Shown: positions 321-63,425 of the stretch, in pieces
How the letters are laid out: every line of letters starts with the position of its first letter
How positions within the stretch are numbered: position 1 is the stretch's first letter
Source: Okamejei kenojei
Taxonomy: Eukaryota
Direction of reading: 5' to 3'
Length of the DNA stretch: 64,000 nt
Assembly: GCA_035221665.1 (NCBI GenBank)
Contig: CM069139.1
Location: 57,412,001 to 57,476,000, forward strand
Notes under the pieces: model-generated
The model's database searches: none
What the model was told of the DNA's origin: nothing
Seen by the model: only the letters and a program-made list of their open reading frames with translations
Translations under genes and position numbers: made by a program

Positions 321-414
321 GTTACACAAAAGGCTGGAGAAACTCAGCAGGTGCAGCAGCATCTAAGGAGCGAAGGAGATAGGCGACGTTTCGGGTCGAG
401 ACCCTTCTTCAGAC
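321..414 (-). mobile_element. 94-bp Penelope-like 3' end with hammerhead motif and 11-bp TSD
   Basis: attgtcatgtg is repeated at 310-320 and 415-425. The insert is homologous to 40448-40542, the end of the GIY-YIG element. Confidence 0.8.
381..414 (-). ncRNA. Minimal hammerhead ribozyme motif (PLE-type)
   Basis: Minus strand: GU CUGAAGA A GGGU-CUCG-ACCC GAAAC GUC GCCU. Core boxes, stem II and GUC triplet are present; stem I is weak. Confidence 0.55.
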
Positions 415-867
415 ATTGTCATGTGTCCCAGATAGGACAATGACATTCTTGCTTGCTGCAGCACAACAGAATATTGTAAGCATAAATACAGAACATTACT
501 TTAATATTAATGACTAATTGGGGTCAAGGAAAGAGCGTTCACGTCGCGGCCCTGTTTCCACCAATCTTTCCACCACCACGCACAAGAAGCACAAGCGACA
601 AGACAGACACGATTGTGTGCAGATGCTGAGAAGTGTGTTCAGCTCTGGCTGAACAACTTCTAATCTTGTGTGTGGACTCGATAAGAAGAAGAATGAGTAA
701 CATGCTAGTCACATGCTTTTTCTGTTGTTTCCTGTTCGCCAGCTCGGGGGGCTTTATGGGTGCTGTTGAATAGAGTTGACTGCTGCCTATGTTGGGAATT
801 GTGCCCCTTTGCTTCTGAGAGTCCCATTGGACCTTCACTTGCTGTAACCTGCAGAGAGCGGTTCTAG

Positions 868-1210
868 GTTCATAAGTTCATAAGTTATAGAAGAAAAATT
901 AGGCCATTTGGCCAATCAATTGTACTCCACCATTCAATCATGGCTGATTTCCCCCTCAACCACATTCTCCTGCCATCTCCCCATAACCCCGACACCCGTC
1001 TTCTTCCCGTAACCCCGACACCCGTACTAATTAAGAATCTGTCAATCTCCGCCTCCATATCCGTCTGTGGCAATGAATTCCACAGATTCACCACTCTCTG
1101 ACTAAATAAATTTCTCCTTATCTCCTTTCTAAATGCAGATCCTTTTATTCTGTCTGGTTCTAGACTCTCCCACTAGAAACATCCTCTCCATATCCACTCC
1201 ATCCAGGCCT
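868..1210 (-). mobile_element. CR1/HER1-type LINE 3' fragment
   Basis: Decayed VNLWNSLPQ motif in ORF 885-1094(-); tail gggaaatcagccatgattgaatggtggagtaca...tggcctaatt. Confidence 0.75.
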
Positions 1211-6305: not shown

Positions 6306-6670
6306 TTGAGTTTAGTTTATTGTCACATGTACTGAGGTACAGTGAAAAGCTTTTGTTACGTGTGAACCAGTCAGCAGAAAAGCAATACATGATCACAATG
6401 GAGCAATCCACAGTGTACAGATACAGGATAAAGGGAATAACGTGAATAATTTTTAGTGCATGATAAAGTACAGTAAGGCCCAATCAAAGATAGTCCGAGG
6501 GTCTCCAATGGGGTAGATAGTAGCTCTGGACTGCTCTCTAGTTGTTGATAGGATGGTTCAGTTACCCCATAACAGCTGGGAAGAAACTGTCCCTGAATCT
6601 GGAGGTGAGCCTGTACTTATGTACATTTTGCCCGATGGGAGAGAGGAGAAGAGGGAGTGGCCAGGGTGCA
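6306..6670 (-). mobile_element. Rex1/Babar-like LINE 3' fragment
   Basis: Tail catgtgacaataaa(ctaaa)n on the minus strand; RFRDSFFP-like C-terminal motif at about 6575-6600. Confidence 0.7.
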
Positions 6671-6861
6671 CTCAGGTCTCTTCAACAGAAAAACCAGTAA
6701 AGCTTACTCGCAATTCTATCATGTTTTGGAAAAGGAACATCAGCAACAAGAGAAGGCCATTCAGCCCATCGTCACACCTACATTACCCTTTGGTTGGATC
6801 CTATCTGGTCTTCATTTCAATTACATTTATTTGACTTGGCTCCGTTTTGCTCAATTTACAC

Positions 6862-6958
6862 TTCCCTTCCAAAGACTCCATACAGACAGTACCCATAGTC
6901 AGGATCGAACCTGTAAGGCAGCAACTCTACCCCTGCATCACTGGCCACCCCTCTACCA
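6862..6958 (-). mobile_element. V-SINE fragment
   Basis: ctccatacagacagtacccatagtcaggatcgaacc...taaggcagcaactctacc. Confidence 0.65.
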
Positions 6959-7202: not shown

Positions 7203-7317
7203 GGTTTAGAGGGATATGGGCCAAATGCGGGCTGGTGGGGCTAGTGTAGATGGGAAGTCTTGGTCGGCATGGGCAAGTTGGATCGAAGGGCCTATTTCCA
7301 TGCTGTATGACTCTATG
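7203..7317 (+). mobile_element. CR1/HER1 LINE 3' tail
   Basis: ggtttagagggatatgggccaaatgcggg...gaagggcctatttccatgctgtatgactctatg. Confidence 0.75.
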
Positions 7318-7960: not shown

Positions 7961-8890
7961 AGCCCCAATTGCTCCTTTTTATAGCCTTCGATGGCCTTTT
8001 CATCTCAGTGATGCTGTCGTTGGTCACAAATCTCACTGCTATTCCACTGTGACATCTTCACTCGTTTGCTGCTGCTCATTAACAAACAATACTGCTGTGA
8101 AATTGGTTTAATGACAAAGTAATAAAATTGCTATTCAACTCACAGATTGCCCGAGGCTCCTCGAGCTCCTACAAGGCTTACACTGTGTGCCAAGATGCAT
8201 TAAGCTGCTTATTTGTGTACACTGCATCCTTCACTCTGTTTTAGTCTATTTTTCTCTGTCTATATTCAATACTGTTTCCCTACTGCCTCCCACCTTAAAA
8301 TTAACGTTGATTTATGCGTGTAACCTGTGCCACATTGACTCGGTGTGCTACATCACACGGCTGGTACTATAGATATTCATAAAGGAAACATGGGCCCTCA
8401 AACAAAGGAAACAAACCATTAAATATACAATTCTCTATTTAGATTTATCACAATATTAGCAGATAATTTTGACCTGTATCTTCTCAAATATGTAATATTT
8501 CCAATCTTACTTTTTGAACATCTTAATACCTTGCTCACAAGTATTAAAGGGCATGTGTTAGAAAAGGCTTCATAAATTTTTGTTTACAGAACAGTGATTT
8601 GTGCCATTGATGCCATCAGATTAACCATAACATAAATTTATGGTTTTAAATTAAGTCATAATTTAAATGGTTAAATTAAACCATTTAACCATTTGTAAGT
8701 GTTTAAAATGCCACAATTTCTTGCTTGGCAGAGAATGCTGAGGTTGTATTTACTATGCCTTGACAATTTTCTTTACAGTAGAAAGTGAACGTAAATACAT
8801 TATGGCTAAATCCCTCCAGAGAATGTTAAATATACACTGTTGTTCGTGATGGATGAGGCTTCTCTGAACTGTCCCCACCATCATATATTG

Positions 8891-8980
8891 GCACAAAATG
8901 CAGGAGTAACTTAGCGGGTCAGGCGGCATTTCTGGAGAAAAGGAATAGGTGACATTTCGGCTCAGACTCCTTCTTCAGAC
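8891..8980 (-). mobile_element. Penelope-like 3' end, degenerate hammerhead
   Basis: cacaaaatgcaggagtaacttagcgggtcagg...aggtgacatttcgg...ccttcttcagac. Confidence 0.75.
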
Positions 8981-9646
8981 CGCTATCACCAGACCGCTAT
9001 CACCTCCCCTTACTCCACATGATGACACTGCTCCTTTAAATATCAGTTTGCCTTCTCGCTTGGGCTATTTGAAGATTTTATTAATACAAGATGTACGCAT
9101 ACCTACAAAGCTGTTTTTGCTGCCACCTGTTTTTCATAACGAGTGCCCATTTTCTAAAACTACTTGGTTACCATTTCTAGAGGCCACCACCTCCCCCCTG
9201 ATTTACTGTTGATGGACAAGAGTGAAATAACCAAACAGCTATGTAACAGGTGGGTAATTCTAATTATAAGCAGCCAACATTTTTATTGTTATAATGTAAG
9301 GAACTCTTATGAGTTATTTGAGCTTTTTTTTTGCTTGTTTCCTAAAACAAGCCTTTTGGCTTTCTTGAAGCAGTGGTTTGGTTTGGAACAGTTCTGTTCA
9401 ATGTGCACAAGGAATGCCTGGCAAGCGCTTAATGGTGCAGTGAAACACAGTAGTCATGTGGCCACAAGAGGCAAATGGTTAGTGTGGGGGGAGCGGCTGA
9501 TGGGTAGTCATTGAAGAAAAGTGTTTTATAACCAGACATGTCAAACAATGTGAGAGAGCAATCTGAGAAGGAGGTCACCAATAGTCTGGAGGAGGTGGTT
9601 CAAGAAGACACAATTCGTGGTGGAAATGGGGGAACAAAAATTAAAG

Positions 9647-10354: not shown

Positions 10355-10612
10355 GGAAAATGTGGATAGGTGATGTTTCGGGTCGGGACCCTTCTTCGGA
10401 TAGATTGTAGGTGGGGAGCAGGGAAAGAAAACTGGGAGAGAGGAGAGGAAGGATAAATCATGACCCTTCTCCCTACCAGCAGTCTGCAAAAGTTATCTAG
10501 ACCGGAAACGTCATCTATCCATGGTCTCCAGAGATGCTGCCTGACCTGCTAAGTTACTCCAGCACTTTGTGTCCTTTTGTGTCAACCAACATTTGCAATT
10601 CCTAGTTTCTAT
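10355..10612. mobile_element. Head-to-head pair of Penelope-like 3' ends
   Basis: Minus copy ggataggtgatgtttcgggtcgggacccttcttc; plus copy agtctg...ggaaacgtcatctatcc...gagatgctgcctgacc. Confidence 0.7.
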
Positions 10613-12027: not shown

Positions 12028-12323
12028 TGTTTAGTTTAGATACAGCACGTAAACAGGCCCTTCAGCCAACTGAGACCACGCCAATCAACGATCCCCACAG
12101 CACTATCCTACACATTAGGGACAATTTGCAATTTTTACCAAAGCCAATTAACCTACAAACCTGTATGTCTTTGGAATGTGGGAGGAAACCGGAGCACCAG
12201 GGGTAAACCCATGCGGTCACGAGGAGAATGTACAAACTCCGTACATACAGCACCATAGTCAGGATTGAATCCGGGTCTCTGGCGCTGGAAGGCAGTCACT
12301 CTAACGCTGCGCCACCGTGCCGC
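12028..12323 (-). mobile_element. V-SINE, full length
   Basis: Tail (tttag)n atacagcacgtaaacaggcccttc, V-domain and tRNA head ending gcgccaccgtgccgc. Confidence 0.85.
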
Positions 12324-12347
12324 ACCATCTGACTCAGATCACCATTA

Positions 12348-16299: not shown

Positions 16300-17030
16300 C
16301 AGCCACGGAGTCCGATAAACCTAAAAGCTTCGTTAATGTCTGCCTGCCTGTATCCCATAGATAGAGCACTTTGTAAATGAACCTGCTTTGATAAATATAT
16401 TAAGGAAAGCTGCGAATAAAAGGAAAGTCTTCTCATTTGTAAATACAACCTCTGCTACATGGAATTATAATGATAAAATGGGGTTCCATGTAATTAAGTT
16501 TGTATAAGACCTGAAATCCGTGCAAATACCTTCCCCGAATTTTGAAAGGAAACTGTCAGTTCAATTAATCTGAACATCACCCGAGAATGTACTGAACAAA
16601 ATGAAGCTGCAGATAAAGCCCGGCCCAGTATTTTGATAAGTAATTCCTGTATCATTTCTTTGGTACTGTGATCATTTCATTTAATCCAACCTCCCCACAT
16701 CTCCCCCACTCCCATTCAAAGTTACGTGTTAAGCCATCTACAAAGGGACAACTAGTATTACTACTGTGGCAGTAATCCATCATATCACACATGTAAAATG
16801 GGAAAAAAAAGTATACTTTTTTTTTAAATGATCAAAAAGGAAAATCAATATCCTATTCTAAATAAGGTTCTGAAATGGGACAATGCAAAACCTTCTATCC
16901 AGGCCGCCACAACCAAAGTTGCATGTTTGAGCGTTAAATAGTTTCGTATCACCCCAAAAAAATAAGGGGGTTCGTTACAAAGCAAAGCACCTTTCCATAG
17001 AGAGAAAGCATAGGAGAGATAAGTCACTCA

Positions 17031-17165
<135 letters not shown>

Positions 17166-19645: not shown

Positions 19646-20963
19646 AAAAAAATGCATAACATGAAAACATTGGTAGAATTAAATTTAATGAATATTGAAA
19701 ATGTCCCTACAATATTAACAAATAATCGTACTTGAAATGCATTTTGTTATGAATGGAAAATGGCTTGTTAGCATGCTTGGACACAAACCCAGATAAAGAT
19801 TAAAATACTGTGTGCATAATTGATTCCAACCAAATACCTTGTGTCCCAGTGACGCCGCATGTTTGATGTTCATATGGCCAGATCTTTCACACCATACCAA
19901 TATTAACTATGCGGTGGAACGTTGCCAATTTTGCAGAAACTGCTAATTCAGTATCAGTAGCAAATTCACTGGAGCAATGACAGAACAAATGGAGGGTGTA
20001 ACCGTAACTGCTCCTTACAACCATGTTTAAATTCTGCTCCGCTTACGCAGTTTGACAAAGACCACTATGTTAAGCGCCATTCTCTACACAAGATGGAATG
20101 AAAGGTGCAAGGAAAGATTATCCACAGGAGTTAAAAAAAAATAGACCAGTTTAAACCACCTACTGCTACTCACTTTAAACAAAACTGCTAAAAAGCACTC
20201 AATAGAAGGAATCAGCATAATTGATCCCAAGCACTGATGACCAGAGATGACAGTTCCATCCTGTCCCCTAAATTACTGGATCACTGTAGCCAGAATTTAT
20301 GAGAGTCAGACAGTGGACCTCACATAGCTCACATATTAGACCATTAGGCATCTAACTACCTCTGAACAATTTCAATGCATTATCTCTCTTTCTCCCTGGG
20401 GCACAAACTTCACTCTTCCATACTTTTAATATATTTTGTCGGCACGAAGCAGATCGAGTTATTACTTGCCAGCAGAACGCAGCAAACACTAGTATCCTGG
20501 CTGTGCGTGCTGCAGTTGTGGTCTCAGCATATCCACGGACTGTAAAATAGGATAAATACTCACACAGTAAACTTTATCTCGAGATGATCGGTATACTCCA
20601 GAGCTAGAACTTGATTTGTTTTCACACTGACCGTAGATCAATCTCTTTCCTAGAAAGAGGGCTCATTATTTTTGTTTTCAAGTCAAGCGCACAAAAATCC
20701 ACTTATCTTAATTTCATAGAAAAGCCTGCAGAAACCACAAGTAGATGAGTGGTTTCCACATGAATTATCTCAAGTCAGTGGTTACAAGGCGTCCCATTAA
20801 AAATCTTTGCATACAGCTCGTGAAAGAAAGAATCCAGTCAGACAACGGAACAATGGACTGTCAACAGAAAAGGATTGACACATCACCACCGTGCCAAGAA
20901 GTTATTGGTGGATAGTTTGCCTCCTGAAAATGGGAGACAGGGACATCCAAGAAAGGAAGAGAA

Positions 20964-21111
20964 GTGTGTAGGAAGGAACTGCAGATGGTGGTTTACACTG
21001 AATATAGACACAAAATGCTGGAGTAACTCAGCGGACAGGCAGCATCTCTGGAGAGAAGGAATGGGTGACTTTTCGGGTCGAGACCCTTCTTCAGCATTTT
21101 GTGTCTATCTT
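20964..21111 (-). mobile_element. Penelope-like 3' end with hammerhead motif
   Basis: agacacaaaatgctggagtaactcagcgg...gggtgacttttcgggtcgagacccttcttcag, followed by inverted terminal cagcattttgtgtctat. Confidence 0.75.
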
Positions 21112-21254
21112 CATAGGAAGGTAAGTGTCAGAAATAGTCCAGGTGAATTTGAGAGAAAGGATGGAAGATGGTGCTAGATGATAAAACTTAACGAGAATGC
21201 AGCACCAATGGAGATATCAATGGAGTGAAATGGAGTTGTCCATGTGACTACAAG

Positions 21255-27254: not shown

Positions 27255-27995
27255 GAAAACACAAAGTGCTGGAGCAATTCAAAGGGTCAGGCAGCATCCC
27301 TGGACGACATGGATAGGTGACGTTTCGGGTCGGGTTCTTTTGAGTCCCGACCCGAGATGGCCAATTAATTTTTTCTGCAGATGCTGGAGAATCGAGGGTA
27401 CACCTGGAGAAACTCAGCGGGTGCAGCAGCATCCGAAGGAGATAGGCGACGTTCGGGTCGAGATCCACAATGCTGCTTAATGTTCTCCAGAGATGCTGCC
27501 TGACTCTCTGAGCTACTCCAGCACTGTGTGGCCTTTATATTTGTAAACCAGCATCCGCAGTCTCTTGTATCCACATGGGAAATACAGACGGTGAAGTAAA
27601 GGGATCAAGTACTACACATCTGAAAGCCAATACCAATGTGCAGTCATCAAAATGCAGTTTGCAAAAACAACGTGCTGGAGTAACTCAGCGGAGAACATGG
27701 ATAGGTGATGTTTTGGGTTGGGATTCGTCTCCAGCTTGTTCTTCTACAACACACAAGCTCACATGGTCTCGCGCACACGCACATTCACATGCACATACAC
27801 ATACAGACGCACACGCGCACAACACCGAAGCAGACAAGCAAACATGGTCAAACGCATGGTCGCAGAGCAGCACGGGTGCTGTCTGTACAAAGTGTTTGTC
27901 TACTGAAGAAGGGTCTCGACCCGAAACGTCACCCATTCCTTCTCTCCAGAGATACTGCCTGTCCCGCTGAGTTGCTCCAGTTTTTGTGTTTATCC
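27255..27995. mobile_element. Cluster of at least five Penelope-like 3' ends in both orientations
   Basis: Repeated gctggag(t/a)aactcagcgg, ggataggtgacgtttcgggtc and agagatgctgcctgac blocks. Confidence 0.75.
27903..27933 (+). ncRNA. Minimal hammerhead ribozyme motif
   Basis: CUGAAGA A GGGUCUCGACCC GAAAC GUC ACC. Confidence 0.55.
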
Positions 27996-31835: not shown

Positions 31836-32082
31836 AAGATAGACACAAAAAGCTGGAATAACTCAGCAGGCCAGGCTCTGGAGAAAAGGAATAGGTGATG
31901 TTTCAGGTCAAGACCCTTGCTCAGACTGAGACTCAGGGGAGCGGGAACCAAGAGATAAGAAAAGGTACATGGAGCAAATTAATGAAAGATATGCAAAAAG
32001 AGAGATCAAAGCCAGGAAAAATGATCAAGCTTTTTGTGTCCATCTTCAGTGTAAACCAGCATCTGCAGTTCCTTTCTATACA
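31836..32082. mobile_element. Penelope-like 3' end (minus) with inverted terminal remnant
   Basis: agacacaaaaagctggaataactcagc...gacccttgctcagact ... agctttttgtgtcc. Confidence 0.7.
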
Positions 32083-35000
32083 TTTTACATGCCTGATGAC
32101 TGCTGGCCCTATAAAATATTGTGCTGGATACCCTGGAGCAGTTCAAGTAACTTGATTCAAAACGAGTAGATTTCTAAACTCGTTGCAGAGTTCTGTTTAA
32201 TTTCTCTTTTTTTGTTGTGGTTAAGAAAGGTTAATTACTGCAATCTAGGAAGGGTTAATGGCTCCCATCTCCTAGCTTCATGACTTCATGTGAGAGAACA
32301 GGACAAAGACAACAGATGGCAGACAGTGTTTGACTTCTGTCCTTTCCATTGTTACTGAAAAGGCTGCAGAACCTTGATTGATAAAAAGCAAAGGCTCTGG
32401 TGGCCTTGGCCATAATTATCTGATAGCTCTGTGACGGATGAGCCCTGGAACATTTAGTTTTCTATAGACATGGTCTCTGACAAGTGAACTGTCCCAAGGT
32501 TGCTATGGGTGACCAAAGTGCTGACATCGAGCCCCTTCACCAAACAAGTACATGACAAATGAGGCTAGCGGCCTCAATCCATTTTGAATCTCGGGGACTA
32601 CCACCCCTCACCCACTGCCCAACAGAAAATAATCTACCCAATGGACATCAATGGGTTAAATTGAGACTACTGATTCCAAACTTAAATTTGCATATGTTTA
32701 AAAGAAAGCAGACATTCATAATAAGTCGAGGTACAGCTGCTTTTCACAATCTTGGCAGATTGCACCATCTCGTCAGCAACGCTGCTTTTATTTACTCGTT
32801 TCTCCCACCCGGCAAAGCCTGATAACTGTACAAAACAACCTAAACTTTGGCAATTATTGAAGTAAACAATAAGCTGATGTGTTCCAGCTGCAGAAGGTGC
32901 AGCAGCAGCCTCGCCAGCCGAGCTGCTGTCCACTCCAATGCAACATGGCAGGACACAAAAGAGGCCCTGCTCCACCACTGCTGCAAAAGAGCAGCCCGTC
33001 ATCAAGGGTGTGCTATAGCCTGTGTCCCCATTGCATTGGGCGGCCTAGTCTTTGTGTCAGGCAAACATCCTTTCCTTGGTTAAGGCTGCCTATAGTCATG
33101 CTGTAACATGGTTCACTGTCAGCCTAACAGCTCAAAGGCCATGTGTGTTGCATCAAACTTAATGATAATTTTCATCACCAGAGTACTGCCATGGCAACAG
33201 AAATAGAACTGTGCCTATGACGAAAATTGGCTATAACTTACGTTCACAAACTATCAATTGTTTTTTCTTCCTCTCTTTGCGAATTACATTTTACATTTTG
33301 GTGATCTTCCAACTTACCTCTCCACTCCTTCAATTTGATTCAGGCTGGGTTTGAATAAGAAACTATTTGAATTTCAACTTCCAGCTTTACACAAAGGACT
33401 AATTTCAAGGAACTCGTTGAGGCATTTCATTTGGGAGGGATTTTTCTTTTAACCTCCTGAAAAGGAAACAATTTTGTTCCAACAAAACCCCCCACTTTCC
33501 AAGGGGAAGCCCAAGCGCTTGAAATAAAAGGCACCTCAATGCGCTGTTGCAACAAAGATAAGGACACCTCTGAAATTTGATGAGAGTGTTTACAAGGGAA
33601 GGGTCTTTGTGTCTGAGCACTTCCTGCTTCCATTCTGTGATCAAATATGTTCTTTGCAAATCATGTAGGAGAGTACTTGAGTGCAAAGGCAAAGGGAACT
33701 AAGGGCTAATTGAGTGGTTTGAGGGCTTCTCAATGTATCTAATTTAAGGACCTCTCTCTCTTGCAGCCAATAAAAATCACCCTTGGCAAGATATCTCTCC
33801 TGCCGTCTTTCGAATGTAGTTTAAACCGAGTCAAAGTAATAAGAGTTCGCTGATTATACTCAATGGCAAGGTTGCTGAGCAAAATCGATAAAGGAATGTG
33901 CCAGGTTCAATTATGTTCCATTGTGATTTAATTTGCATGGTGGTGTGGGGAGGGGATGTAAATGTAAAATACCTGCATTTCCAAGTGCCCTCCGAGTGGC
34001 ATGTGTGTTAAGGATTGCTACTCTATTCACAAAATGGCGCAAAACTTAAGTTACTTGCAGTTCAGTGTTTAGAATTCAAATAAACAACACATTTGCACGT
34101 GAAATAATCGCCTCTATATTTCATTAGTGTTCACTCCCCTTCACCCATTATAAGATGCCACACTTGAAAAACGCTCGGCAGCAGCAGAAAACAAAAGTCT
34201 GTAAAAAATGAATACAAACTACTTTTTCCCCCCTCTATGCTGCATTAAACTAACTGCCTGGAATTGTTGTGGCTGGCCTTTGTTGTTTTTGTCCCTTAGA
34301 GTTGTCCAGAGGAGGTGACAATGGCTCAGAGTTGAGAACATATGTAAAAAGACCCCTGTGGCTGTTGGAAAAGTTGCTCATGCTGCTTGGTTGTTTGAAA
34401 AATAACAACCAATGTTCCTTTCTTTCGACAAAACTAATGAATGCATGAATGTTAGAATGCAGAGGCGACCCATTCAGAGTGGAAAGCCCGAGCACCTTCC
34501 CTGTAAGAGTGCATTCTGCATTGGTGAAATACATTTGCTTAACAAATTAAATTAATGAGATAATTCAATTAGTCTTTTTGATGTGAAAATACTGCTTAAG
34601 GAAAGGATTACTGTAGTGCAGGGATAGTTTGGCCTCTACAAAGAGGTGAATGTTGAAATAATGCATTAAAAATAAGAGGGGGACAATGATGTGAGTTTTG
34701 CTCTGAATTCTGCTGCGACTTGAGTTGTGCACTTGTTTGCATTTGCACGGGCCAGATGGGGAAATTCTCACATTACTCCAGTTGCACGGAAACAAAATCG
34801 TTCGTCAATAAACTGGGAAATGTCAAGGCTGAGCAGGAGCCAAGCAAAGTAAAAGTTTCTGACTTGCGTGTGGAAGGAGTGCTCTGTTCGACGCTCCTGC
34901 CAAGGCTTTTTTACACAAACAGGCAGCCATGCTCTTTAGGACAGGGAGGGAAAACCTCCCGGCAACTTCCTCTGCAATGCTCGCTCCATTCCAAATTAAA

Positions 35001-36094: not shown

Positions 36095-36832
36095 ACAAAA
36101 AGTTACACATGCTGGAACAGCACCTCATACAGTATTTCGCTTGGGCAGTTTACAACCCAGCAGTATGAATATGATTTATCTAATTTCAGGTAGCCCTTGC
36201 ATTCCCTCTCTTTCTGCCCCACCCCCAACGTAGTCATCCTGCTGGTTCCATTGTTTGCATTCATATACCCTTTCGTGATCACCTCTTCCACAGCCAACAA
36301 TGGACCACTGTGGCTCCACCTTTCCTTGGTTACTGATTTGTTTTGAACCTTTTCATACTTCTAGTTTCACTTTCCCCTGAGTCTCAAGAAGGGTCTCAGC
36401 CGAAATGTCACCCGTCCAAGTTCTCCAGAGATGCTGCCTGACCTGCTGAGTTACTCCAGCAGATAGGCTCAAACTGCTGGAGTAACTCAGTGGGGTCAGG
36501 CATCATCTCTGGAAATAAATAGGTGTCATTTCGGTTGAGACCCTTCTTCAGACTGAGAGTCAGGGGAACATGAAACCAGAGGTATGAAAAGGTTCAAAAC
36601 ATATCAGAGCCGGCACCAACAACCAAGGAAAGGTGGAGCCACAATGGTCTGTTGTGGATCGGCTGTGGAAGAGTTAAAGTGAATGGAGAATACTTTGCAT
36701 CTCCCATTATCATCATATTTGCCTCATCTATCTGTGTTCCCCAGAGATGCTGCCTGATCCGCTGACTTACTCCAGCACTATGTGTCCTATTGCGTATTAA
36801 CCAGCATCTGCAGCTCCTTGTTTCCACACAAC
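36095..36832. mobile_element. Penelope-like 3' fragment (+), an inverted partial copy and a further (+) end
   Basis: LEQHLIxxxLGSLxPxxMN-type C-terminus at about 36110-36190; degenerate hammerheads at about 36380-36410 (+) and 36520-36553 (-). Confidence 0.75.
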
Positions 36833-38612: not shown

Positions 38613-39421
38613 AAGGCATATGTGTAGGAAGGAACTGCAGATGCTGGTTTAAACCAAAGATGGACACAAAATTGTCCCTAGTGTGTAGGATAGAACTAAT
38701 GTACGGAGATTGCTGGTCAGCGAGGACTCGGTGGGCCGAGGGCCTGTTTCCGTGCTGTATTTCTAAAACTAAAGGGGATTGTCTTCTCTTACTCTGATTT
38801 ATCATATTTACCCCAGTCTGCCGGCAGATCCTTTCTCACTCTAGTAAATCAGCAAGTACTTACAATTATAAGCCAAAAATAATAGCAATAATCAATGAGC
38901 ATTTACAAAAAAAAGAAAAAAACATGGAATATCAGTGAAAATCTATGTCTACACCATGTTATTCGAACCATTCTTTTACATTTCTGCTCCTGTAACTTCT
39001 CATCATAAATCTTTGAGCCCTTTGTAAAATCTCTCATAAAAAGTACCGAGAGATTGTAATGGGGGTTTAAAAGGAAGAATTGCATTGAGAGAGTCCAAGA
39101 TATAAAGTTGCAGTTGCTGTTAAACAACAGTAAGTTTCTGTTTAAGTAACCATATCTATATGATTCAGATACTGAAACCATTTCATTAGCAGTTTCATGC
39201 CTTATGTTAACTGTGTAATTGTGAAATATTGCCATGGACTAAAGGTATCAGGTGAAAGCATTAACCACATGTAAGGCTTTACTTCAAATGCTAATTGCAA
39301 AAGGTAGTACAGAAGACTGACTAATGTATCAAAATCTTTTTGACCTCTTTCTCTTTTACCTTGTCCTGAAGCCATGTTTCCTTGATAGAGTTTGATGACA
39401 ACACAAGGACAGACACAAAGT

Positions 39422-40542
39422 AGTCTACTGACCGACTACTGATAGACTACTGACCGACATCCACTATAAACCCACTGACTCGCAAGGCTATCTGGAGTAC
39501 ACTTCTTCCCACCCTGCTTCCTGTAAGGACTCCATCCCCTACTCCCAATTCCTCCGTCTACGCTGCATCTGCACCCAGGATGTGGTGTTTCACACCAGGG
39601 CATCGGAGATGTCCTCATTCTTCAGAAAATGAGGGTTCCCCTCTTCTACTATAGATGAGGCTCTCACCAGGGTCTCATCTATACCCCGTGACTCTGCTCT
39701 CACTCCCCATCCCCCCACTCGTAACAAGGGCAGAGTCCCCCCGCCCTCATCTTCCACCCTTCCAGCCGTCACATACAACAAATAATCCTCCGACATTTTC
39801 GCCACCTCCAACGTGATCCCACCACTGGCCACATCTTCCCATCTCCTCCCTTGTCTGCTTTCCGCAGAGACTGCTCCCTCCGTAACTCCCTGGTCAATGT
39901 GTCCCTTCCTACCCGAACCACCCCCTCTCCAGGCACTTTCCCTTGGAACCGCAGGAAATGCTACACTTGTCGCTTTACCTCCCCCCTTGACTCCATTCAA
40001 GGACCCAATCAGTCTTTCCAGGTGTGGCAGAGGTTCACCTGCACCTCCTCCAACCTCATCTATTGCATCCACTGCTCTAGATGTCAGCTGCTCTACATCG
40101 ATGAGACCAACCGTAGGCTTGGCGATCGCTTCGCCGAACACCTCCGCTCGGTCGCAATAACCAAGCTGATCTCCCGGTGGCTCAGCACTTCAACTCCCCC
40201 TCCCATTCCGAATCCGACCTTTCTGTCCTGGGCCTCCTCCATGGCCAGAGTGAGGACCACCGGAAATTGGAGGAGCAGCACCTCATATTTCGCTTGGGCA
40301 GTTTACACCCCAGCGGTATGAACATTGACTTCTCTAATTTCAGGTAGTCCCTACTTTCTCCCCCCCTTCTCAGCTCTCCCTCAGCCCACTGGCTCCACCT
40401 CTTCCTTTATTCTTCCTGCCCCCCCCCCCCCCCCCACCTTCATATCAGTCTGAAGAAGGGTCTCGACCCGAAACGTTGCCTATTTCCTTCGCTCCATAGA
40501 TGCTGCCTCACCCGCTGAGTTTCTCCAGCATTTTTGTCTACC
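39422..40542 (+). mobile_element. 5'-truncated Penelope-like retroelement (RT thumb, Zn-knuckle linker, GIY-YIG endonuclease, 3' hammerhead motif), 14-bp TSD
   Basis: KPTDSxxYL, SIPYSQFLRL, FRRDCSLRNSLV, KCYTC, FTCTSSNLIYCIHCSRCQLLYIDETNRRLGDRFAEHLRSV; gacagacacaaagt at 39408-39421 and 40543-40556. Confidence 0.9.
40450..40480 (+). ncRNA. Minimal hammerhead ribozyme motif in the PLE 3' region
   Basis: CUGAAGA A GGGUCUCGACCC GAAAC GUU GCC. Confidence 0.55.
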
Positions 40543-40640
40543 GACAGACACAAAGTGCTGGAGTAACTCAGTGCGTCAGGCAGCATCTCTGGAGAAAAAG
40601 CATAGGTGACTTCTCGGATCAGGACCCTTCTTCAGACTGA
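40543..40640 (-). mobile_element. Inverted Penelope-like 3' end (target of the above insertion)
   Basis: gacacaaagtgctggagtaactcag...gacccttcttcagactga. Confidence 0.8.
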
Positions 40641-40691
40641 CCTTTTGGGTCTGTCAGGAACTGACTGTTCCTGGTAACGGACATCACATCT

Positions 40692-43210: not shown

Positions 43211-43439
43211 TGGAGCCCTGGAGGATAAGCTGCACCTATTTTAGGTGTGGTGAAATCTTGCTGTGTTAGATACAACTACTAAATTGTGCTCTCAGAAAAA
43301 TCACAGTAAAATTGGTTAATGGCCACAGACATGGGTTAAACAGGACATCTGTTTCTCAATTCAGATCGGCTCCCAAAACATTGTTGCACATCAGGGAAGT
43401 ACATCACACTTTTATCGCATTTCACTGCCTCCTTGATAC

Positions 43440-43665
43440 TTGTGCGACTATTGCACTCTCCTCTCCTCTTATCCGACACCCTTTGTCTCTTACTCCAACC
43501 ATCTGCCAATCAACTCCCCCTCCCTCACATGTGTGCATCTATCACTTGGCAGGCTTTGACCTGTACCCACCTCTTTTTTCAACTTTCTCTCCCCCCCCCC
43601 CCACTCCAATCAGTCCAAAGAAGGATCCCAGCCTAAAGCGTCGCTTGTCCGTTCCTTCCACCAAT
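43440..43665 (+). mobile_element. Decayed Penelope-like 3' UTR
   Basis: Similar to 63150-63330; eroded hammerhead cagtccaaagaaggatcccagcctaaagcgtc. Confidence 0.5.
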
Positions 43666-45393: not shown

Positions 45394-45714
<321 letters not shown>

Positions 45715-49917: not shown

Positions 49918-50219
49918 TTAGACTTTAAAGAGTCAGCATGGAAAAAGGCCATTCGGCCCACTGAGTATGTGCCAACCAGCGATCACCCCATGCACTAGCT
50001 TACAAACCTCGGACAATTTTTTACAATTTGCAGAAGCCAATTAACCTACAAACCTGAACATCTTTGGAATGTGGGAGGAAACCGAAGCACCTGGAGAAAA
50101 CCCAGGCGGTCACGGGAAGAACATTCAAACTCTGTACAGACAATACCCATGGTCAGGATCAAACCCAGGTCTCTGGCGCTGTAAGACAGCAACTCTACCA
50201 CTGTGCCACCATGCTGCCC
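49918..50219 (-). mobile_element. V-SINE, full length
   Basis: Collinear with the other copies. Confidence 0.85.
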
Positions 50220-50366
50220 TGGTTGCAGTTGCTGCCTTACAGTGCCATTCTGCCAAGCTTCAGGTGACCTGCCTACATAATGTCAGCTGGTTTAACATCC
50301 TGTCCAAAAACATCTGTCTTCAGATTCTGGATTCAGATTATATCCAACCACAATCATGCCACGATG

Positions 50367-52147
50367 GCATATTCAGCCACCACATCTGGATTCTAAACAG
50401 CCCCCCTTGCCGCTTTTTCCGAGCCCCCACTCACTCATCTTTACTACGGACACTCAGTCACTCTACACCTCCATCCCCCACCAGGAAGGCCTTAAAGCCC
50501 TCCGTTTCTTTCTCGACCGCAGAACCATCCAATTTCCCTCTACTACCACTCTATTCCACCTAGCGAAGCTGGTCCTCACCCTTAATAGCTTCTCCTTTGA
50601 CTCCTCTCACTTCCTCCCAGTTCAAGGCGAAGCTATGGGCACCCGCAAGGGCCCAGCTATGCCTGCCTCTTTGTAGGGTACATTGTTCCAGGCGAACACT
50701 ATCTCCATTATATTGATGACAGCATCGGTGATACCTCCTGCCCCCATGCAGAACTCATGGACGTCATCAACTTCACCACAAATTTTCATCCTGCACTCAA
50801 ATTTACTTGGACTCTTAAACCCACTGACTCCCACAACTATCTCGACCACATTTCTTCCAACCTTGCTTCCTGCAAAAATTCTATCCCCTATTCCCAATTC
50901 CTCCATCTACACCGCATCTCTGCCCAAGATGGGGTGCTCCAAACTAGAAAATCCGAGATGTCCTCATTTTTTAGGGAACAGGGGAGTTCACCTCGCCCAT
51001 CATAGATGAGGCCCTCACTCGTGTCTCCTTGGTACCCTGCAGCTCCGCCCTTGCTCCTCCTCCCCCTAGTCGCAACAGAGACACAGTCCACCTTGTCCTT
51101 ACATTCCACCCCATCAGCCGTCGCATACAACTGGAATTTCCGCCACCTCCAATGGGATCCCACCACGAGCCACATTTTCCCATCTCCACCCCTTTCCGTC
51201 TTCCGCAGAGATCCTTCCCTCCACAACTCCCTGGTTAACTCATCACTTCCCACTCAAACCACCCCCTCCCCAGGTACCTTCCCCTGCAACCGAAGAAGAT
51301 GCAACGCCTGTCGCTATACTTCCTCCTTCAACTCTCTCCAGGGACCCCGATAGTCCTTTCAGGTTAGGCAGAGGTTCACTTGCACCTCCTCCAACCTCAT
51401 CTACTGTATCCGTTGTTCAAGATGTGGACTCTTATACTTCGGCGAGACCAAACGCAGACTGGGCGATCATTTAGCGGAACACCTTCGCTCAGCATGCCTG
51501 ACCCAACCTGATCTCCCGGTTGCTGGACACTTTAATCCTCCTTCCCATTTCTACATGACCTTTCTGTCCTCCATTGTCAGAGTGAGGCTAAACGCAAATT
51601 GGAGGAACAGCACCTCATATTTTGCTTGGGCAGCTTACAGCCCAGAGGTATGAATATTGATTTCTCTCACTTCAGGTAGCCCCGGCATTCCTTCTCTCTC
51701 TATCCCTCCCCCATCCAAGTCGCACTAGTTTCTAATTTTTATCCTACAAACAGCTTAGCATATTCAGCCACCGCATCTAGAATCATCCTCTTAAACCCAA
51801 ACAGCTCCCCTTGCTGCTTTCCGAGCCCCCACTCACTCATCTTTACTATGGACGTTCAGTCCCTCTACACCTCCATCCCCCACCACGAAGGCCTTAAAGC
51901 CCTCCATTTCTTTCTTGACTGCAGAACCATTCAATTTCCCCTCTAACATCCTTTATCATTGTTACTTTTTTACATATCTTTCATTCATTGTTCTTTATCT
52001 CTCCACATCACCGTCGATATCTTTTGTGTTCCTTATCCCTTAAACCTAACCAGTCTGAAGAAGTGTCTCAACCAGAAAGGTCACCCATTCCTTGTCTCTA
52101 GTGATGCCGCCCGTCCCGCTGAGTTACTCCAGCTTTTTGTGTCTAAC
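50367..52147 (+). mobile_element. Decayed Penelope-like retroelement: RT (SLYTSIPH, GxAMGT, YIDD), GIY-YIG and 3' end
   Basis: TDTQSLYTSIPHQEGLKAL...GEAMGT; cattatattgatgac (HYIDD); NFHPALKFT; FTCTSSNLIYCIRCSRCGLLYFGETKRRLGD; degenerate hammerhead at about 52052-52085. Confidence 0.88.
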
Positions 52148-52724
52148 CCCTTGCCGCCTTTTTCTCTTCTAAATACTTCATAAGTTCGTCATAGGAGCAG
52201 AAGTAGACCATTCGGCCCATCATGCCTACTCCACCATTCAGTTATACTTCCTCACAGCCCACCATATCTATCATGTTTTTAGTGCCCCACTTTAATCTTG
52301 CCTTCATTGACTATTCCTCTACACTCCTTCAACGTATCAGTACCAGTGCAAAATCGTTGTCGTCATTGTTTTTATTTTGTGAATTGACTTGGTCAGAATT
52401 CACACAGTATTTGTTATTTAGGCTCTATTTATCTCATCTGGAAGAAGCCCCCTTGCCTTTGGATTACAAGATTAGCAGCAAGTTGTTGAGTCCCTTGAGC
52501 TTGTTTAGCCATCAGTCAAATCGGTACATGAATCCCCCTTATCCACCATATACCTTATTAACTATACTTGATACAAAATAGATTAATCTCAGTTTCGCTA
52601 TTGACGTTGTATTCTTTCTTCCAACCTAGTTCACTGGTCACTTCCATAGATGGGCTCATCTCGTTTCAGATATTCATCTGCTTCTTATTTTAGGGTCAAA
52701 TTCAACCTCATGCAAGGCTGAGAT

Positions 52725-53030
52725 TAGTTTACATCTATTTTAGAGATTTTCGCGTGGAAACAGGCCCTTCGGCCTACAGAGTCCTCGCCAACCTCAATCA
52801 CCCATACACTAGTTCTATCCTGCACACAAAGGACAATTTACAGAAGCCAATTAAAGTACAAACCTGTGCGTCTTTGGGATGTGGGAGGAAACCAGAGCAC
52901 CCAGAGAAAACTCACGTGGTCACAGGGAGAACGTTCAAACTCTGTACAGACAGCACCCATAGTCAGGATTGAACCTGGGTCTCTGGCGCTGTAAGACAGC
53001 AATTCTACCGCTGCGCCACTGTACCACCCT
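52725..53030 (-). mobile_element. V-SINE, full length
   Basis: Collinear with the other copies. Confidence 0.85.
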
Positions 53031-54329: not shown

Positions 54330-54806
54330 AATAATTATATAATATTGACTGGCCTTGAGGGAGACACCAGGAATATTGCCCAAACTGAAATCATATTGCC
54401 CGAGTCGAAGACGAGGGCAATATGATTTCAGTGCGGGCAATATTCCTGGTGTCTCCCGAAAGAAGCCAGTCAATATTATAATTATTACCTATCCCCACGT
54501 AAATTAAAATAATTCCGTCGTCGTCAAGAGACGTGAATCTCGCACTGCTGGAGGCTGCCATGTTTGTTTAGATGCCGTGACCTGATTCTTCGCGGTGAAC
54601 TTTGGCCGGGTTCGTGTCCCGGATGTACGCCGGATGTAATATTTCATCTTTGTGATTGACCGCAGTTTTTCTACGTAAAGTCAATGGCAAAACCCGGAAG
54701 AAGAAAAATACCAAGTAATATTGCCCGCTGGAAACTGCACGTTTTTTGACCAATCAAAATACCAACTAATATTGACCAGTAAAACTACCTCATATAGGTA
54801 ATAATA
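54330..54806. mobile_element. Non-autonomous hairpin element, possibly Crypton-like
   Basis: About 157-bp hairpin (54330-54486) with cccGAGTCGAAGACGAggg apex; second inverted pair attattacctat (54481-92) / ataggtaataat (54794-805). Confidence 0.55.
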
Positions 54807-56399: not shown

Positions 56400-56485
56400 G
56401 GCCTCGACCCAAAACATCACCTATTCCTTTTCTGTAGAGATGCTGCCTGACTCGCTGAGTTACTCCCAGCCTTTTGTTGTCTATT
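56400..56485 (+). mobile_element. Penelope-like 3' end, truncated
   Basis: ctcgacccaaaacatcacctattcc...agagatgctgcctgactcgctgagttactcc. Confidence 0.7.
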
Positions 56486-58050: not shown

Positions 58051-58482
58051 AGTTTAGTTTTAGTTTTGGAGATACAGTGTGGAAACAGGCCCTTCGGCCC
58101 ACTGATTCCCTCCTGACCTACGATCACCCACACACTAGTTCCATCCTACATGATAGGGTCAATTAGCAGAAGCCAATTGTGAAGCCGAGGCTGAGAACCA
58201 AATTGGCTTCGGTAAAAAAAATTATAAATTGTCCCTAGCGTGTTAGATAGTGCTAGTGTACAGGGGTGATCGTTAGTCAGCACAGACTCAGTGGGCTGAA
58301 GGGCCTGTGTCCGCGCTGTATCTCTACACACTTGCGCATCTTTGGAATGCGGGTGGAAACCAGGGCATGCAGGGAAAACGGGAGAAGGAACAAACTCCGT
58401 ACAGAGAGCACCCATAGTGAGGATTGAACCCGGTTCACTGGCGCTGTGAGGCAGTAACTCTACCACTGTGCCATGGTGCGGC
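58051..58482. mobile_element. V-SINE (-) containing an inverted SINE 3' half
   Basis: 58051-58178 (-), 58201-58326 (+), 58327-58482 (-). Confidence 0.75.
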
Positions 58483-60629: not shown

Positions 60630-60970
60630 AACAAGGTGTACAAAATCATGAGAGGAATAGATTGGGTACACACACAGAGTCTCTTGCCCAGAGTAAGGGA
60701 ATCAAGCAGCAGAGGACATAAATTTGAATGAAGTGAGGGGGAAAAGATTTCATAGGAACCCGAGGGAAAACTGCTTCACACAAAATGGGGTGGGTGTATG
60801 GAACGAGCTGCTTGAGGAGGTAGTTGAGGCAGGTACTATCACAACATTTAAGAAACATTTGGATAGGTTTCTGGATAGGACATGTTTAGAAGGATATGGG
60901 GCAAACGCTGGCAGAAGGCACCAGTGTAGATGGGACATGTTGGTCGGTGTTGGCAAGTTGGGCCGAAAGT
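60630..60970 (+). mobile_element. CR1/HER1 3' fragment
   Basis: FTQNGVGVWNELLEEVVEAGTITTFKKHLDRFLDR..LEGYG. Confidence 0.85.
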
Positions 60971-62924
60971 CCTATTTCTACAACTGCCAACACTCTTTTG
61001 CTCTGATGTATCTCTTACAGCACAGGAATGTTTGGGCTCAAACCTTTAGTAATAAACATATTCTGTTTCAAAATAAATGTAAAGTTTTTGTAATAATATT
61101 CCTTCGAGGAATAGAATTCTTAGTTGAGACATTATATTCCAAAGAAAACTATTTTACTTTTACATAATGTGAATGTCCACAATGTGCTAAATGCTTTTGT
61201 ATAAAATAAAAATATTAAACCTGTGTGTGTTTATTTTTATGTTATTAAAAAGTTGATGATTCATAAATAATTGGCCACATGAATACAACAAGCACACAAC
61301 TAGTCTTGTCTCTGTCAACAGTAGCCACAAAAACATTTTGTTTACAATGCCACAAATAAAATTTAGTTTCAGTGCAACTTCTTGGACTGTGAGTGAAAGT
61401 TGAAATTTAGAGGGGCACCAAAGTTTATTTGTTCTACATAACAAGATGAAGTGCCTTACAGGATGCCTGTCATTTTCATTCCTATATGGAAAATTTACCC
61501 CCAAATATACCATTTATAGTAAATAACCAGCGAATTTATGAAATATGGTCTTCAAAATGAAAACATGTTCTCAGTCCAATATTTTCCCCAATCCAATTGT
61601 AATATTTTTAATCTGGTTGCAATCTAAACGTAGAATTCTGCTGTACATTCATGAAGAAAGGCACAATAAGAATAGCTGTCCTTTGAAATGGCTTGGAGGG
61701 TTTGTTAGAAGAAAGGGTAAGGGTGCGATTTGCCTCTATTCAGGCACTTGGAGTACTTGTATTGCAGTCATAAAAATTATTGAACCAGAAATTGTTTTGG
61801 GCATATTAACTGGACTGAAGTCAAATGTGTTTATGTTGTGGTTGTGCCACAGGGATGGATTCACATCAGCTCCACGCTGCATTCTGAATAAGAAGGGGAG
61901 GGAACGGCAGATGGATAAAATAAGCAATTAGGCAGCCACATTTTAGCATTGATTTCAAATTTGCTGCTAGCTGGGAATCAGAAACATTTAGCTCCCAGGT
62001 AGGAACCCGACTTTAATAACTGTATTCTTGAGCTGAGAAACTATGCTTTCATATCATTCATTAAGTTACAGACACAGGGAATTCAGGAAAAGAGATAACA
62101 TTAAAATAAATGGAAAAATACACAAATTATATTACAGCTTAAGATCCATAAGAGATTTTAAGTGGTTGTAAGAAATTCTAAGTGAAATGGACCAGTGGAG
62201 ACAAAGGAAAACCAAATAAAAGTTACATTTTCAGTTCTGCTTTTGGTCTAATATAAAGATTTTCTCTCACTTGGTTCATTTGTGAAAATTGGATGCATTA
62301 GAATCAGCATTATGTCCAAGGTTAAATATATATCTCGAAAAATGTTTGGAATGTTCACACATTATAAAGATTTAGATCAGTAAGAATGAGGCCATTAATT
62401 GTTTTATCATGATCCTGATTCACTCCTGAATGTTGCATGCATTTTGCTCTTGGCGAACACGTGCAAACATGTTGCTACACAAAAACTAAACACATTTTGA
62501 AGTAAACATATTTACAGCTTTTGGACAAAAGTACAGCTAAAAGTCAACTGAAAGGGATCATTAGAAAGAGCATGCAGAATACATTTGTTTTACTTAAAAA
62601 AACAATCAATGTTTTCACAGATATTTATATATACCTTTAATAACTACTAATATACTACACATTTATCTTTGGTTGTTACATGCATCATTATGACACTGTT
62701 GGGTATAAAATAACTGACCTAGTAGAAGATGGCAAAGATGGCTTTTCCTTTGCAGAACACCGAATTTATCTATCAAGTAACCAAAAAGAAAGATTGTATT
62801 GGAACTCAGCCAATTTGTTAATTTTCTTGCAATATAAATAATTCACCTGATCATTCTTGTTGTTAAAATACCTACATTTATTTCCTCAAAATGTCACTAT
62901 TCTCTGATTTACTGCCACTTTGCA

Positions 62925-63425
62925 TCATTCGGTACAATAACACCTCATATTCCTCTTGGGTAGCTTCCAACGCAATGGTATGCACACTGAAATTTCTAAT
63001 TTTAGATAACCCCCCTCCCCCTACCTTACTCCCCCACACCCCCCTTCCCCCCCCTTCCCACTCTCCCCTGTGCCCCACTTGGACTCACACCAATTTCTCC
63101 TCTTCCCCTCCAGCTACATTCCTACCTCTGACTTCACAATTTACAACTCTTCACTCCTTTTGTCTCGCGCATTTTTCCATCTCTGGCCTTTGTCCAACTA
63201 TCTGCCTATCAAAAAACACCTGTTCACTTATTCCATGCCATGCATTGCCCTGCCCATCCTCTCTTCTAGCTTTCTTCCCCTCCCCCATATCGAATAATCT
63301 GTCTGAAGAATTGTCCCAACCCAAAACACCACCCATCTATGTTTTCCAGGGATGCTGCCTGATCTGCTAAGTTTCCTCAGCACTTTGTGTCTTATTTTTG
63401 TAAACCAGCATCCCATGTTTCAACA
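62925..63425 (+). mobile_element. Penelope-like 3' fragment with eroded hammerhead
   Basis: cacctcatattcctcttgggtagcttccaa; gtctgaagaa at 63301; gatgctgcctgatctgctaag. Confidence 0.75.

Follow-up and report, generated by a model that had tools for sequence, protein, structure and literature searches.

The question raised by this locus is whether the short modules dispersed along a MEIS gene are truncated ends of a larger retroelement or a ribozyme-bearing family in their own right, and whether the hammerhead motif they carry could still cut. A search of the window (the whole 64-kb stretch of DNA analysed) with a profile built from 4 copies returned 21 module matches, 19 of them at E<1e-6 and the weakest at 27343 (E=0.056) and 43612 (E=0.17); the same profile gave 0 matches in 5 shuffled windows. 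Every coordinate at which the original prediction had placed a module of roughly 90-130 bp coincides with a profile match. Pieces it had missed lie at 36722-36830, 38621-38671, 32032-32085 and 21097-21113, and two further endonuclease-end stubs (36114-36235 and 62941-63013) run into modules. Relative to the MEIS gene, 10 modules are sense and 11 antisense, with no strand bias. MEIS exons are indeed present, at about 45450-45600 and 17030-17110 of the minus strand; the homeodomain stretch matches Meis1 and Meis2 equally, and the name MEIS2 is based on paralog-specific residues. The units, read one by one, are as follows.

321..414, minus strand: short module with an intact minimal hammerhead (min-HHR), core C3 at 412, GUC; 5' end 2 nt ahead of the core; cleavage predicted between 385 and 384; tail absent; sense to the MEIS pre-mRNA
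310-320 and 415-425: 11-bp target-site duplication of the 321..414 module
520-571: HDV-like motif
8886..8983, minus strand: module whose 5' end lies about 2 nt ahead of the core, with damage to stem II and to the helix III palindrome
10365..10606: head-to-head pair of a partial module with about 80 nt of UTR (10365-10480, minus strand) and a module with a weak tail (10482-10606, plus strand)
20962..21113, minus strand: module with full tail, starting at the core; helix III palindrome broken; microhomology joint to an inverted piece of its own 3' end
27255..27737, both strands: cluster of rearranged, decayed module pieces (27255-27339 minus, 27343-27386 plus, 27403-27466 minus, 27482-27561 plus with tail, 27661-27737 minus)
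27903..27995, plus strand: module with core and stem II intact, GUC; starts at the core directly after a SINE fragment; 5' strand of helix I missing
31839..32085, minus strand: module carrying about 105 nt of UTR, with a tail in inverted orientation on its 5' side; core mutated
36114..36462, plus strand: stub of the endonuclease C terminus, followed by 3' UTR and a decayed module that meets the next one tail-to-tail
36463..36673, minus strand: module carrying about 120 nt of UTR and a mutated cleavage triplet
36722..36830, plus strand: tailed module piece starting near the predicted cleavage site (single copy only)
38621..38671, minus strand: tail-only piece
39422..40542, plus strand: 5'-truncated, broken Neptune-type element with RT thumb, Zn-finger linker and GIY-YIG; stop at about 40347, 103-nt 3' UTR, intact min-HHR (core 40450-40477, GUU)
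39408-39421 and 40543-40556: 14-bp target-site duplication of the 39422..40542 element
40546..40639, minus strand: module starting about 5 nt before the core
43380..43659, plus strand: pyrimidine-rich UTR and decayed partial module (E=0.17); 5' limit approximate
50414..52146, plus strand: broken Neptune-type element, RT core to GIY-YIG, stop at about 51681; internal duplication 51758-51945; decayed terminal module 52051-52145
50403-50413 and 52147-52157: 11-bp duplication flanking the 50414..52146 element
56400..56478, plus strand: module without the CUGA box
62941..63412, plus strand: endonuclease C-terminal stub, about 290 nt of UTR, decayed module and tail

At four loci the modules follow endonuclease sequence, which bears out their prediction as 3' ends of a GIY-YIG Penelope-like element (PLE). 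The order in the parent is RT, CX4CxxC linker and C-terminal GIY-YIG with CCHH-type cysteines; the linker is present in the 50414 element and in relatives, and its first Cys is mutated in the 39422 element. The Penelope-like assignment thus stands, but by its linker the element is Neptune-type, so neither Penelope nor Poseidon. This placement is suggested by the linker, which Nematis has too, together with the hammerhead row of a coral Neptune element (see below). [quoted passage not shown] By protein, the element is related to ORFs of ray, skate, shark and gar that have RT (RVT_1, weak) and GIY-YIG, in agreement with the predicted cartilaginous-fish host. That a module ends both GIY-YIG elements holds directly for 39422-40542, where it comes straight after the ORF and 3' UTR. 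In 50414-52146, by contrast, a duplicated flank, an RT start and a different UTR intervene after the stop: 51758-51945 is 84% identical to 50367-50542 and is a second copy of the flank plus RT start.

Insertion signatures are consistent with this parentage. Target-site duplications of 11, 14 and 11 bp were found at 3 of the 15 units tested, a length of 11 being reached by 1 of 600 random pairs. Graded 5' truncations connect the modules to UTR, endonuclease and RT, and inverted 5' partners and optional tails occur among them as in known PLE insertions; the shape of 31839..32085 is a typical one. The younger 39422..40542 element appears to have inserted into the 3' end of the 40546..40639 module, and that module together with 40445-40542 makes one long hairpin. 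Summed contig depth increases toward the module in 3 runs, a gradient that gives no copy number and in which the module bins mix all subfamilies. A raw DNA run, X21, contributed 14 reads, all less than 90% alike, and was uninformative. No position with a pile-up of molecule starts or ends was reported, though contigs are unable to reveal one. Linkage to RT and GIY-YIG, target-site duplications, inverted partners, the optional tail and covariation with related elements are all observed, and we conclude that the modules are very probably 5'-truncated, mostly decayed 3' ends (pieces of pseudo-LTRs) of several Neptune-type PLE subfamilies carrying the known min-HHR, and likely inert.

The motif quoted for the best copies is exact at C3 412 (minus strand, GUC), 27903 (plus, GUC) and 40450 (plus, GUU), and these are the only 3 of the 21 copies that pass a min-HHR descriptor (mean 0.09 and maximum 2 hits per shuffle in 100 shuffles). 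The predicted helix I of about 2 bp is found at 412 and 40450 but not at 27903 (0 bp), so that an intact core is present in 3 of 21 modules and a 2-bp helix I in 2 of 21. As originally proposed, the sequence fits the published minimal type-I hammerhead of PLEs, with its palindromic, loopless helix III. The Rfam hammerhead models, which the original prediction had suggested as a check, matched nothing, either across the window or in 200 nt surrounding the best copy, nor was a canonical type-I hammerhead with a long helix I and loop contacts found. This class is known from Cervera and de la Pena 2014 (PMC4209133), where an additional base after A9 and examples with a 2-bp helix I already appear. 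Shared with the min-HHRs of PLE pseudo-LTRs in that work are the CUGANGA core, the extra base before stem II, the G-C closing pair, GAAA, the loopless palindromic positions 15.2-16.2, NUH, and the occurrence mostly as dispersed single copies from truncated elements with some opposite-strand pairs; the spacing is that of the Acropora digitifera Neptune row. Helix I has 2 bp here (3 bp in related loci) and stem II 4 bp, unlike in that set.

Related loci in metagenomes, whose host is probably a coral, carry the same hammerhead after the endonuclease in 17 of the 20 loci with room for it (two pairs are duplicates), about 95 nt 3' of the endonuclease and with a helix I of 3 bp. They show exactly the motif given for the A. 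digitifera Neptune row in Fig. S3 of Cervera 2014 (PMC4209133), and the optional 3' tail motif is common to them and the window modules. A covariance model trained only on the metagenome loci returned 7 window modules as its top 7 matches. Across 27 distinct rows 84% of cells pair, against 5-50% in slid controls, with changes on both sides at pair 2 of helix I (CG/GC) and pair 4 of stem II (CG/UA); helix I also has a UA/UG wobble change relative to the related loci. In stem II 2 of 4 pairs change on both sides between the window and the related loci, representing few independent events, and none does so among the window copies. This covariation draws on two related groups (window and metagenome loci), and kinship alone can beat shuffles. 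Exact and degenerate motif scans found nothing in viral or metagenome contigs, and a protein scan of viral contigs confirmed 0 of 171 candidates. The single match of the motif in genome contigs was an unrelated animal-type min-HHR with a 5-bp helix I, probably contamination, and was set aside.

Whether the hammerhead of this lineage still cuts at all is a separate matter. Its core might be kept for protein binding or as a promoter, helix I having shrunk from 3 to 2 bp. Predicted stem II pairing is 0.00-0.16 in the three intact window copies versus 0.44-0.99 in two related loci, and a competing predicted hairpin sequesters the core box in the window copies; moreover, hammerhead mutants of the anole element had no effect on insertion in vitro (PMC11167929). 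On the other hand, every catalytic position and the palindrome persist in subfamilies with differing flanks, both helix I pairs have changed, one in a compensatory way and one to a wobble, 2-bp helices I are published for D. virilis and Culex (PMC4209133), and the anole hammerhead cleaves only with protein (PMC11167929). We thus regard loss of cleavage as improbable, while giving it some weight. The constrained-fold probability of an open core is low in all sequences, well-formed ones included, and has no discriminating power. A long module-tail stem is predicted in the window copies but not in the related loci, so a conserved 3' structure is not claimed. The better-kept core (201 of 217 in core columns versus 823 of 989 in downstream columns) may be a hint that the copies are under selection, but it is accounted for equally well by differences between subfamilies, base composition and the choice of seed.

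For the dispersed copies themselves the case is simpler. With few intact cores or helices I and no same-strand partner nearby, cleavage in place is unlikely, in keeping with the original doubt about monomer activity (helix I of about 2 bp), and the modules, judged by their sequence, are likely inert where they sit. Regulation of the MEIS gene through cutting of its pre-mRNA by intronic copies would have its best candidate in the intact copy 321-414, which is sense to the transcript, but this copy stands alone as a monomer whose helix I has 2 bp, 18 of the 21 matches fail the descriptor, strands are unbiased, and adjacent pairs are inverted and would instead form long hairpins (-131 kcal/mol, z -17). 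Such a role is extremely unlikely.

The modules had further been described as a retrozyme-like family, a description not supported in the term's defined sense: there is no tandem array, no private sequence beyond that of the autonomous element, and truncations are graded. Within the window, 0 of 19 tandem-repeat rows involve a module, and neighbouring modules are inverted. A few go-back joints were seen in contigs, the DNA run among them (the other runs are only guessed to be RNA). Animal non-LTR retrozymes (PMC7229834; Li 2026 preprint) are likewise short, non-coding, hammerhead-bearing kin of PLE pseudo-LTRs; they form tandem 150-450 bp repeats with canonical type-I hammerheads and circular RNA, whereas here decayed modules of the minimal type occur singly or inverted.

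One element of the idea holds up, namely that some very short copies cluster at a shared 5' boundary. Of 23 pieces, 5-6 start within 5 nt before the core (-5..0), at an initiator-like TCAGT, and an 11-bp duplication cleanly fixes this boundary in one of them. An independent non-autonomous family, retrozyme or SINE-like, that has its own transcription and copying and uses PLE proteins in trans could produce such a boundary; retrozymes have been proposed to descend from PLE pseudo-LTRs and are reported in the one chondrichthyan genome examined. However, the boundary-sharing copies span different subfamilies, copy 412 belongs to the same subfamily as the module that ends an RT-bearing element, the longer copies form a graded series, and the motif is of the minimal PLE type where retrozymes have canonical type I; with the tandem array lacking as well, we consider an independent family quite unlikely.

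In the coral-like related loci, which combine a TATA box with an initiator, the TATA box lies about 31 nt before the equivalent start point, and this, together with the shared boundary at TCAGT, suggests run-off cDNAs of uncleaved RNA. We put forward only tentatively that the shortest copies are "strong-stop"-like, the RNA starting just before the hammerhead and RT that set out from the tail of the 5' pseudo-LTR running off the 5' end. The same bases invite another explanation, in which YCAG before the core is the 3' splice site of a PLE intron (compare D. virilis Penelope) and splicing lengthens helix I. A pyrimidine tract and CAG precede the core in all subfamilies, and GT occurs at the stop codon in 3 of 4 stubs; yet related loci have no AG at that position, a donor at the stop codon would remake the same CAG and leave helix I no longer, and no GT..AG joint occurs among the 15 matches listed (of which there are 322 more) for the possible RNA runs. 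We find splicing very unlikely.

Returning to truncated PLE ends, their formation can be outlined on the model of the anole Poseidon element PAc (Frangieh 2024, PMC11167929), whose hammerhead likewise precedes two preferred 3' ends, and these delimit the tail. PAc belongs to another clade, without the linker Zn finger, and the element here is known from sequence alone. DNA would be nicked by the element's endonuclease, reverse transcription would begin inside the RNA, about 65-110 nt 3' of the hammerhead, where the optional tail has its two ends, and would halt at varying distances; such variable stops would give the series from tail-only pieces to 1.7-kb stubs. Uncleaved RNA is the main template in PAc, and a similar protein dependence may be expected here. 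Since helix I has only 2 bp and a competing fold is predicted, cleavage by the parent hammerhead would require a dimer joined through the ACGU palindrome, probably with the element's protein assisting, and dispersed single copies would be left partnerless and decaying. Copies starting 0-5 nt before the core may, at somewhat less than even probability, be run-off cDNAs whose end marks where transcription of an uncleaved RNA began.

Dispersed min-HHRs have already been reported by the thousand per genome in coelacanth and Xenopus (PMC4209133); as originally framed, the result brings a known ribozyme class into cartilaginous fish and contributes little more. Cartilaginous fish are absent from Table S1 and Fig. 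S3 of that paper, and Lunse et al. 2017, as cited in PMC6765202, may list chondrichthyan variants. The finding would matter more if the shared 5' boundary holds genome-wide, touching on the in vivo role of PLE hammerheads and the origin of pseudo-LTRs and solo copies; with a family of very high copy number and 5' ends separable into "at the start site" and "at the cleavage site", such questions could be tested on genome sequence by itself. If the run-off reading is true, genomic 5' boundaries would mark the transcription start, on a template left uncleaved by the hammerhead, and a shift of the start site to 3 nt before the core would account for helix I having shrunk to 2 bp. A genome of such copies would then report in vivo how cleaved templates stand in ratio to uncleaved ones.

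A profile built from four copies of the module, the repeat of about 90-130 bp that carries the minimal hammerhead at the 3' end of Penelope-like elements (PLEs), matches 21 times in the 64-kb window, 19 times at E<1e-6, and has no matches in five shuffled windows. Every coordinate in the original prediction is among these matches; its observation of a dispersed module family is confirmed and its interpretation is partly supported. Modules lie on both strands (10 minus vs 11 plus, binomial p=1). Two MEIS homeodomain exons are on the minus strand, at approximately 45450-45600 and 17030-17110, so that minus-strand modules are sense to the MEIS pre-mRNA. No exons flanking these two were found in the window, and we therefore infer the intronic status of its outer parts. 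The homeodomain stretch of the host MEIS gene matches Meis1 and Meis2 equally in a structure-database search; the label MEIS2 is presumptive, based on paralog residues.

As far as its sequence could be tested, the parent element has the features of a Neptune-type PLE. Broken elements at 39422-40542 and 50414-52146 retain coding pieces of RT and GIY-YIG that are interrupted by stops and frameshifts; a further two C-terminal endonuclease stubs (36114-36235 and 62941-63013) run via a pyrimidine-rich UTR into modules. In the window element the hammerhead lies about 103 nt past the endonuclease, and upstream of the endonuclease is a CX4CxxC motif, a linker described in the accessible part of PMC8557442 as a marker of Neptune and Nematis that is missing in Penelope/Poseidon. 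Twelve longer protein relatives fall below 1e-10 among 147 candidates; those with species names come from rays, skates, sharks and gar. The closest stretch is in a Leucoraja protein (82% identity across 52% of the query), which makes a skate, or a near relative of one, the likely host. GIY-YIG was scored in five of five relatives tested, mostly below the curated cut-off, and RVT_1 weakly in one. In zebra shark, one gene model (P0004) continues across the element's 3' UTR and ends in residues that translation of a similar hammerhead sequence could yield, which suggests, at the protein level only, that the same motif occurs in sharks. Modules form at least four subfamilies that have the hammerhead in common and diverge just past the cut site. 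Summed contig depth, which is not copy number and pools subfamilies in its module bins, is lowest over the RT part, higher at the endonuclease end and highest at the module in three sequencing runs holding the family (0.5-5, 12-20 and 37-41 million, respectively, in run X2). In the second element, 51758-51945, inside the 3' UTR, is a copy of the flank and element start (50367-50542, 84% identical) followed by UTR of another subfamily, which makes this a chimeric or locally duplicated insertion.

The module fits the consensus of the minimal-hammerhead class of PLEs, a class already known. Three copies pass a minimal-hammerhead descriptor, with cores at 412 (minus), 27903 (plus) and 40450 (plus), at a background of 0.09 matches per shuffle (100 shuffles of the window). 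The predicted helix I of about 2 bp holds for 412 and 40450; that of 27903 has 0 bp. In the remaining 18 matches the core, stem II or palindrome is altered, often at CpG, or part of the motif is missing. Scanning with Rfam, as had been proposed, gave no hammerhead model match in the window. Core columns are better preserved among modules than downstream columns (92.6% vs 83.2%), which we read as constraint on parent subfamilies together with sampling bias, not as selection on the insertions.

Related elements were sought in metagenome contigs, where the best 80 of 154 loci were kept (their best segments share 36-66% identity with the query protein) and the hammerhead search was limited to 20 loci that reach the endonuclease end with 300 nt to spare. 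The strict descriptor matches eight of these 20, 92-95 nt past the endonuclease (265 nt in one duplicated locus), and a relaxed match finds the motif in 17, with two pairs being duplicates. Their motif and the Acropora digitifera Neptune row of Fig. S3 in PMC4209133 are identical, as far as that source was accessible, and the loci are thus probably coral DNA. Many of these coral-like copies (L002-L081) have CCGA instead of CUGA in the first core box. A covariance model built from 20 of the related-locus motifs alone puts seven window modules ahead of all its other matches (E 1e-4 to 0.29), and the tail, an optional 3' piece after the module, has a motif common to both groups. When 10 window motifs and 19 related ones (27 distinct in all) are aligned without gaps, pairing holds in 83.6% of cells, a value reached by none of 500 shuffles; slid controls gave 5-50%. 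Two pairs in helix I (2 and 3) and two in stem II (3 and 4) change on both sides, in few independent events and in none among window copies alone. Candidate stem II covariation, proposed earlier as a check, is confined to the comparison of window with related motifs. A well-formed minimal hammerhead whose helix I has 5 bp was also seen at L001:1475-1535 (minus); its contig is catalogued as a bacterial metagenome-assembled genome, and the AT-rich context suggests animal contamination.

The proposal of a retrozyme-like family failed on two counts: the modules, within the window, are not tandem units, and the motif is not the canonical hammerhead that characterizes retrozymes in the accessible part of PMC7229834. 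No paper on chondrichthyan PLE hammerheads was found in the literature searched. A 2026 preprint (10.64898/2026.07.22.740005), in its accessible part, describes retrozymes in the sole chondrichthyan genome studied there and PLEs of the Neptune and Poseidon types in five vertebrate classes; the window family may be listed in its supplements.

Monomers of minimal hammerheads are inactive and dimers weak, according to the accessible part of PMC4209133, and dimer cleavage here would require two intact same-sense copies within one RNA. The sole same-strand intact pair is 12.5 kb apart and antisense to MEIS, one member lacking helix I. Adjacent module pairs are inverted and form long hairpins. Predicted stem II probability is 0.00-0.16 in the three intact window copies vs 0.44-0.99 in two related loci, and a competing predicted hairpin hides a core box in the window copies. 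Because of the missing dimer partner, the inverted pairs and this predicted folding, hammerhead cleavage in place would be unlikely. For an anole PLE, the accessible part of PMC11167929 describes reverse transcription that begins inside the RNA at two sites defining the tail, a hammerhead that cleaves only with protein, and uncut RNA as the main template. By analogy, modules may be truncated cDNAs primed at either tail end, about 65 or 110 nt beyond the cut site.

Of 23 pieces, six start at -5 to 0, counted from the core (five without the piece at 27733, which is unclear), and a single piece (36722) starts near the cut site. A scan statistic over the 19 pieces whose starts fall from -130 to +80 yields p=0.0014 with six and p=0.017 with five, in a post hoc test with boundaries set by eye and a crude uniform null. 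Such a boundary might come from RT stalling at structure or from microhomology. Copies sharing it lack the pyrimidine tract of those with a UTR (0.33-0.55 vs 0.68-0.88); in one of them, a target-site duplication fixes the boundary. Of the two boundaries listed as loose before for run X15, which was flagged as probable DNA, one is at 40447 (68 contigs, agreement 0.33, likely unrelated flanks), the A of TCAGT, which we take to fit the initiator consensus; it is absent among those listed for X2 and X17, and the cut site among those listed for all three runs. Of 33 motifs in related loci, 16 have TATAWA 37-39 nt upstream of the core (against a background of 0.001 per nt); it sits about 31 nt ahead of an A at -7, with CCAAT farther upstream, for example:

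L063:2510-2580, plus strand, probable coral Neptune 3' UTR with CCAAT, TATA box and initiator-like A at fixed spacing, immediately upstream of the hammerhead

Upstream homology ends within 70 nt in six distinct related motifs; by eye, it does so at -7 to -9 in three of them. No TATA box was seen in the window subfamilies. A pseudo-LTR with TATA and initiator is already reported for a rotifer PLE, and an initiator with a downstream element for D. virilis Penelope (PMC2377424), in the accessible parts of these sources. We tentatively suggest, with somewhat less than even confidence, that the shared boundary is a transcription start site: reverse transcription starting in the 5' pseudo-LTR would run off the capped RNA end, copying an uncut hammerhead. 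No earlier statement of this was found in the accessible literature searched, which attributes solo pseudo-LTRs to recombination or deletion.

A second predicted ribozyme fold lies in the window:

520-571, plus strand, compact HDV-like ribozyme fold (predicted), antisense to MEIS

It matches Rfam CPEB3 at 32.3 bits (gathering 35, E=1e-4). P1 has 6 bp and opens with G-U, P2 has 7 Watson-Crick pairs, P3/L3 resembles that of CPEB3, the catalytic position is a C, and a proper P4 is missing. An HDV-like descriptor, written after seeing the site, finds it alone in the window and nothing in 40 shuffles. The fold, single-copy in the window with no ORF behind it, is possibly the 5' end of another retroelement; no published account of it was found in the literature searched.

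A second abundant dispersed repeat of about 300 bp (84-188, 12038-12327, 49929-50220, 52758-53030 and others), presumably resembling the HE1 tRNA-derived SINE of sharks and rays, has fragments adjoining modules at 27903 and 40640. A near-perfect inverted repeat of about 140 bp (54338-54480), possibly a MITE, draws spurious Rfam microRNA matches. Tail-to-tail module pairs at 40445-40640 and 36380-36556 are long inverted repeats, about 74-79% identical. The pair at 40440-40645 folds as a long hairpin (-131 kcal/mol, z -17), and such hairpins could be putative RNA-editing substrates in MEIS pre-mRNA. Target-site duplications of 11, 14 and 11 bp were found in three of 15 units tested, with one of 600 random control pairs reaching 11 bp and none longer. 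Some copies have the tail of 30-40 nt and others do not, and at 21094 and 31924 an inverted 3'-end piece adjoins the module on its 5' side; optional tail, inverted partner and duplication are PLE signatures in the accessible parts of bioRxiv 2021.04.23.441226 and PMC3846280. From the 14-bp duplication, the 39422 element seems to have landed in the 3' end of an antisense module older than itself, which would mean that the element prefers its own end as a target.
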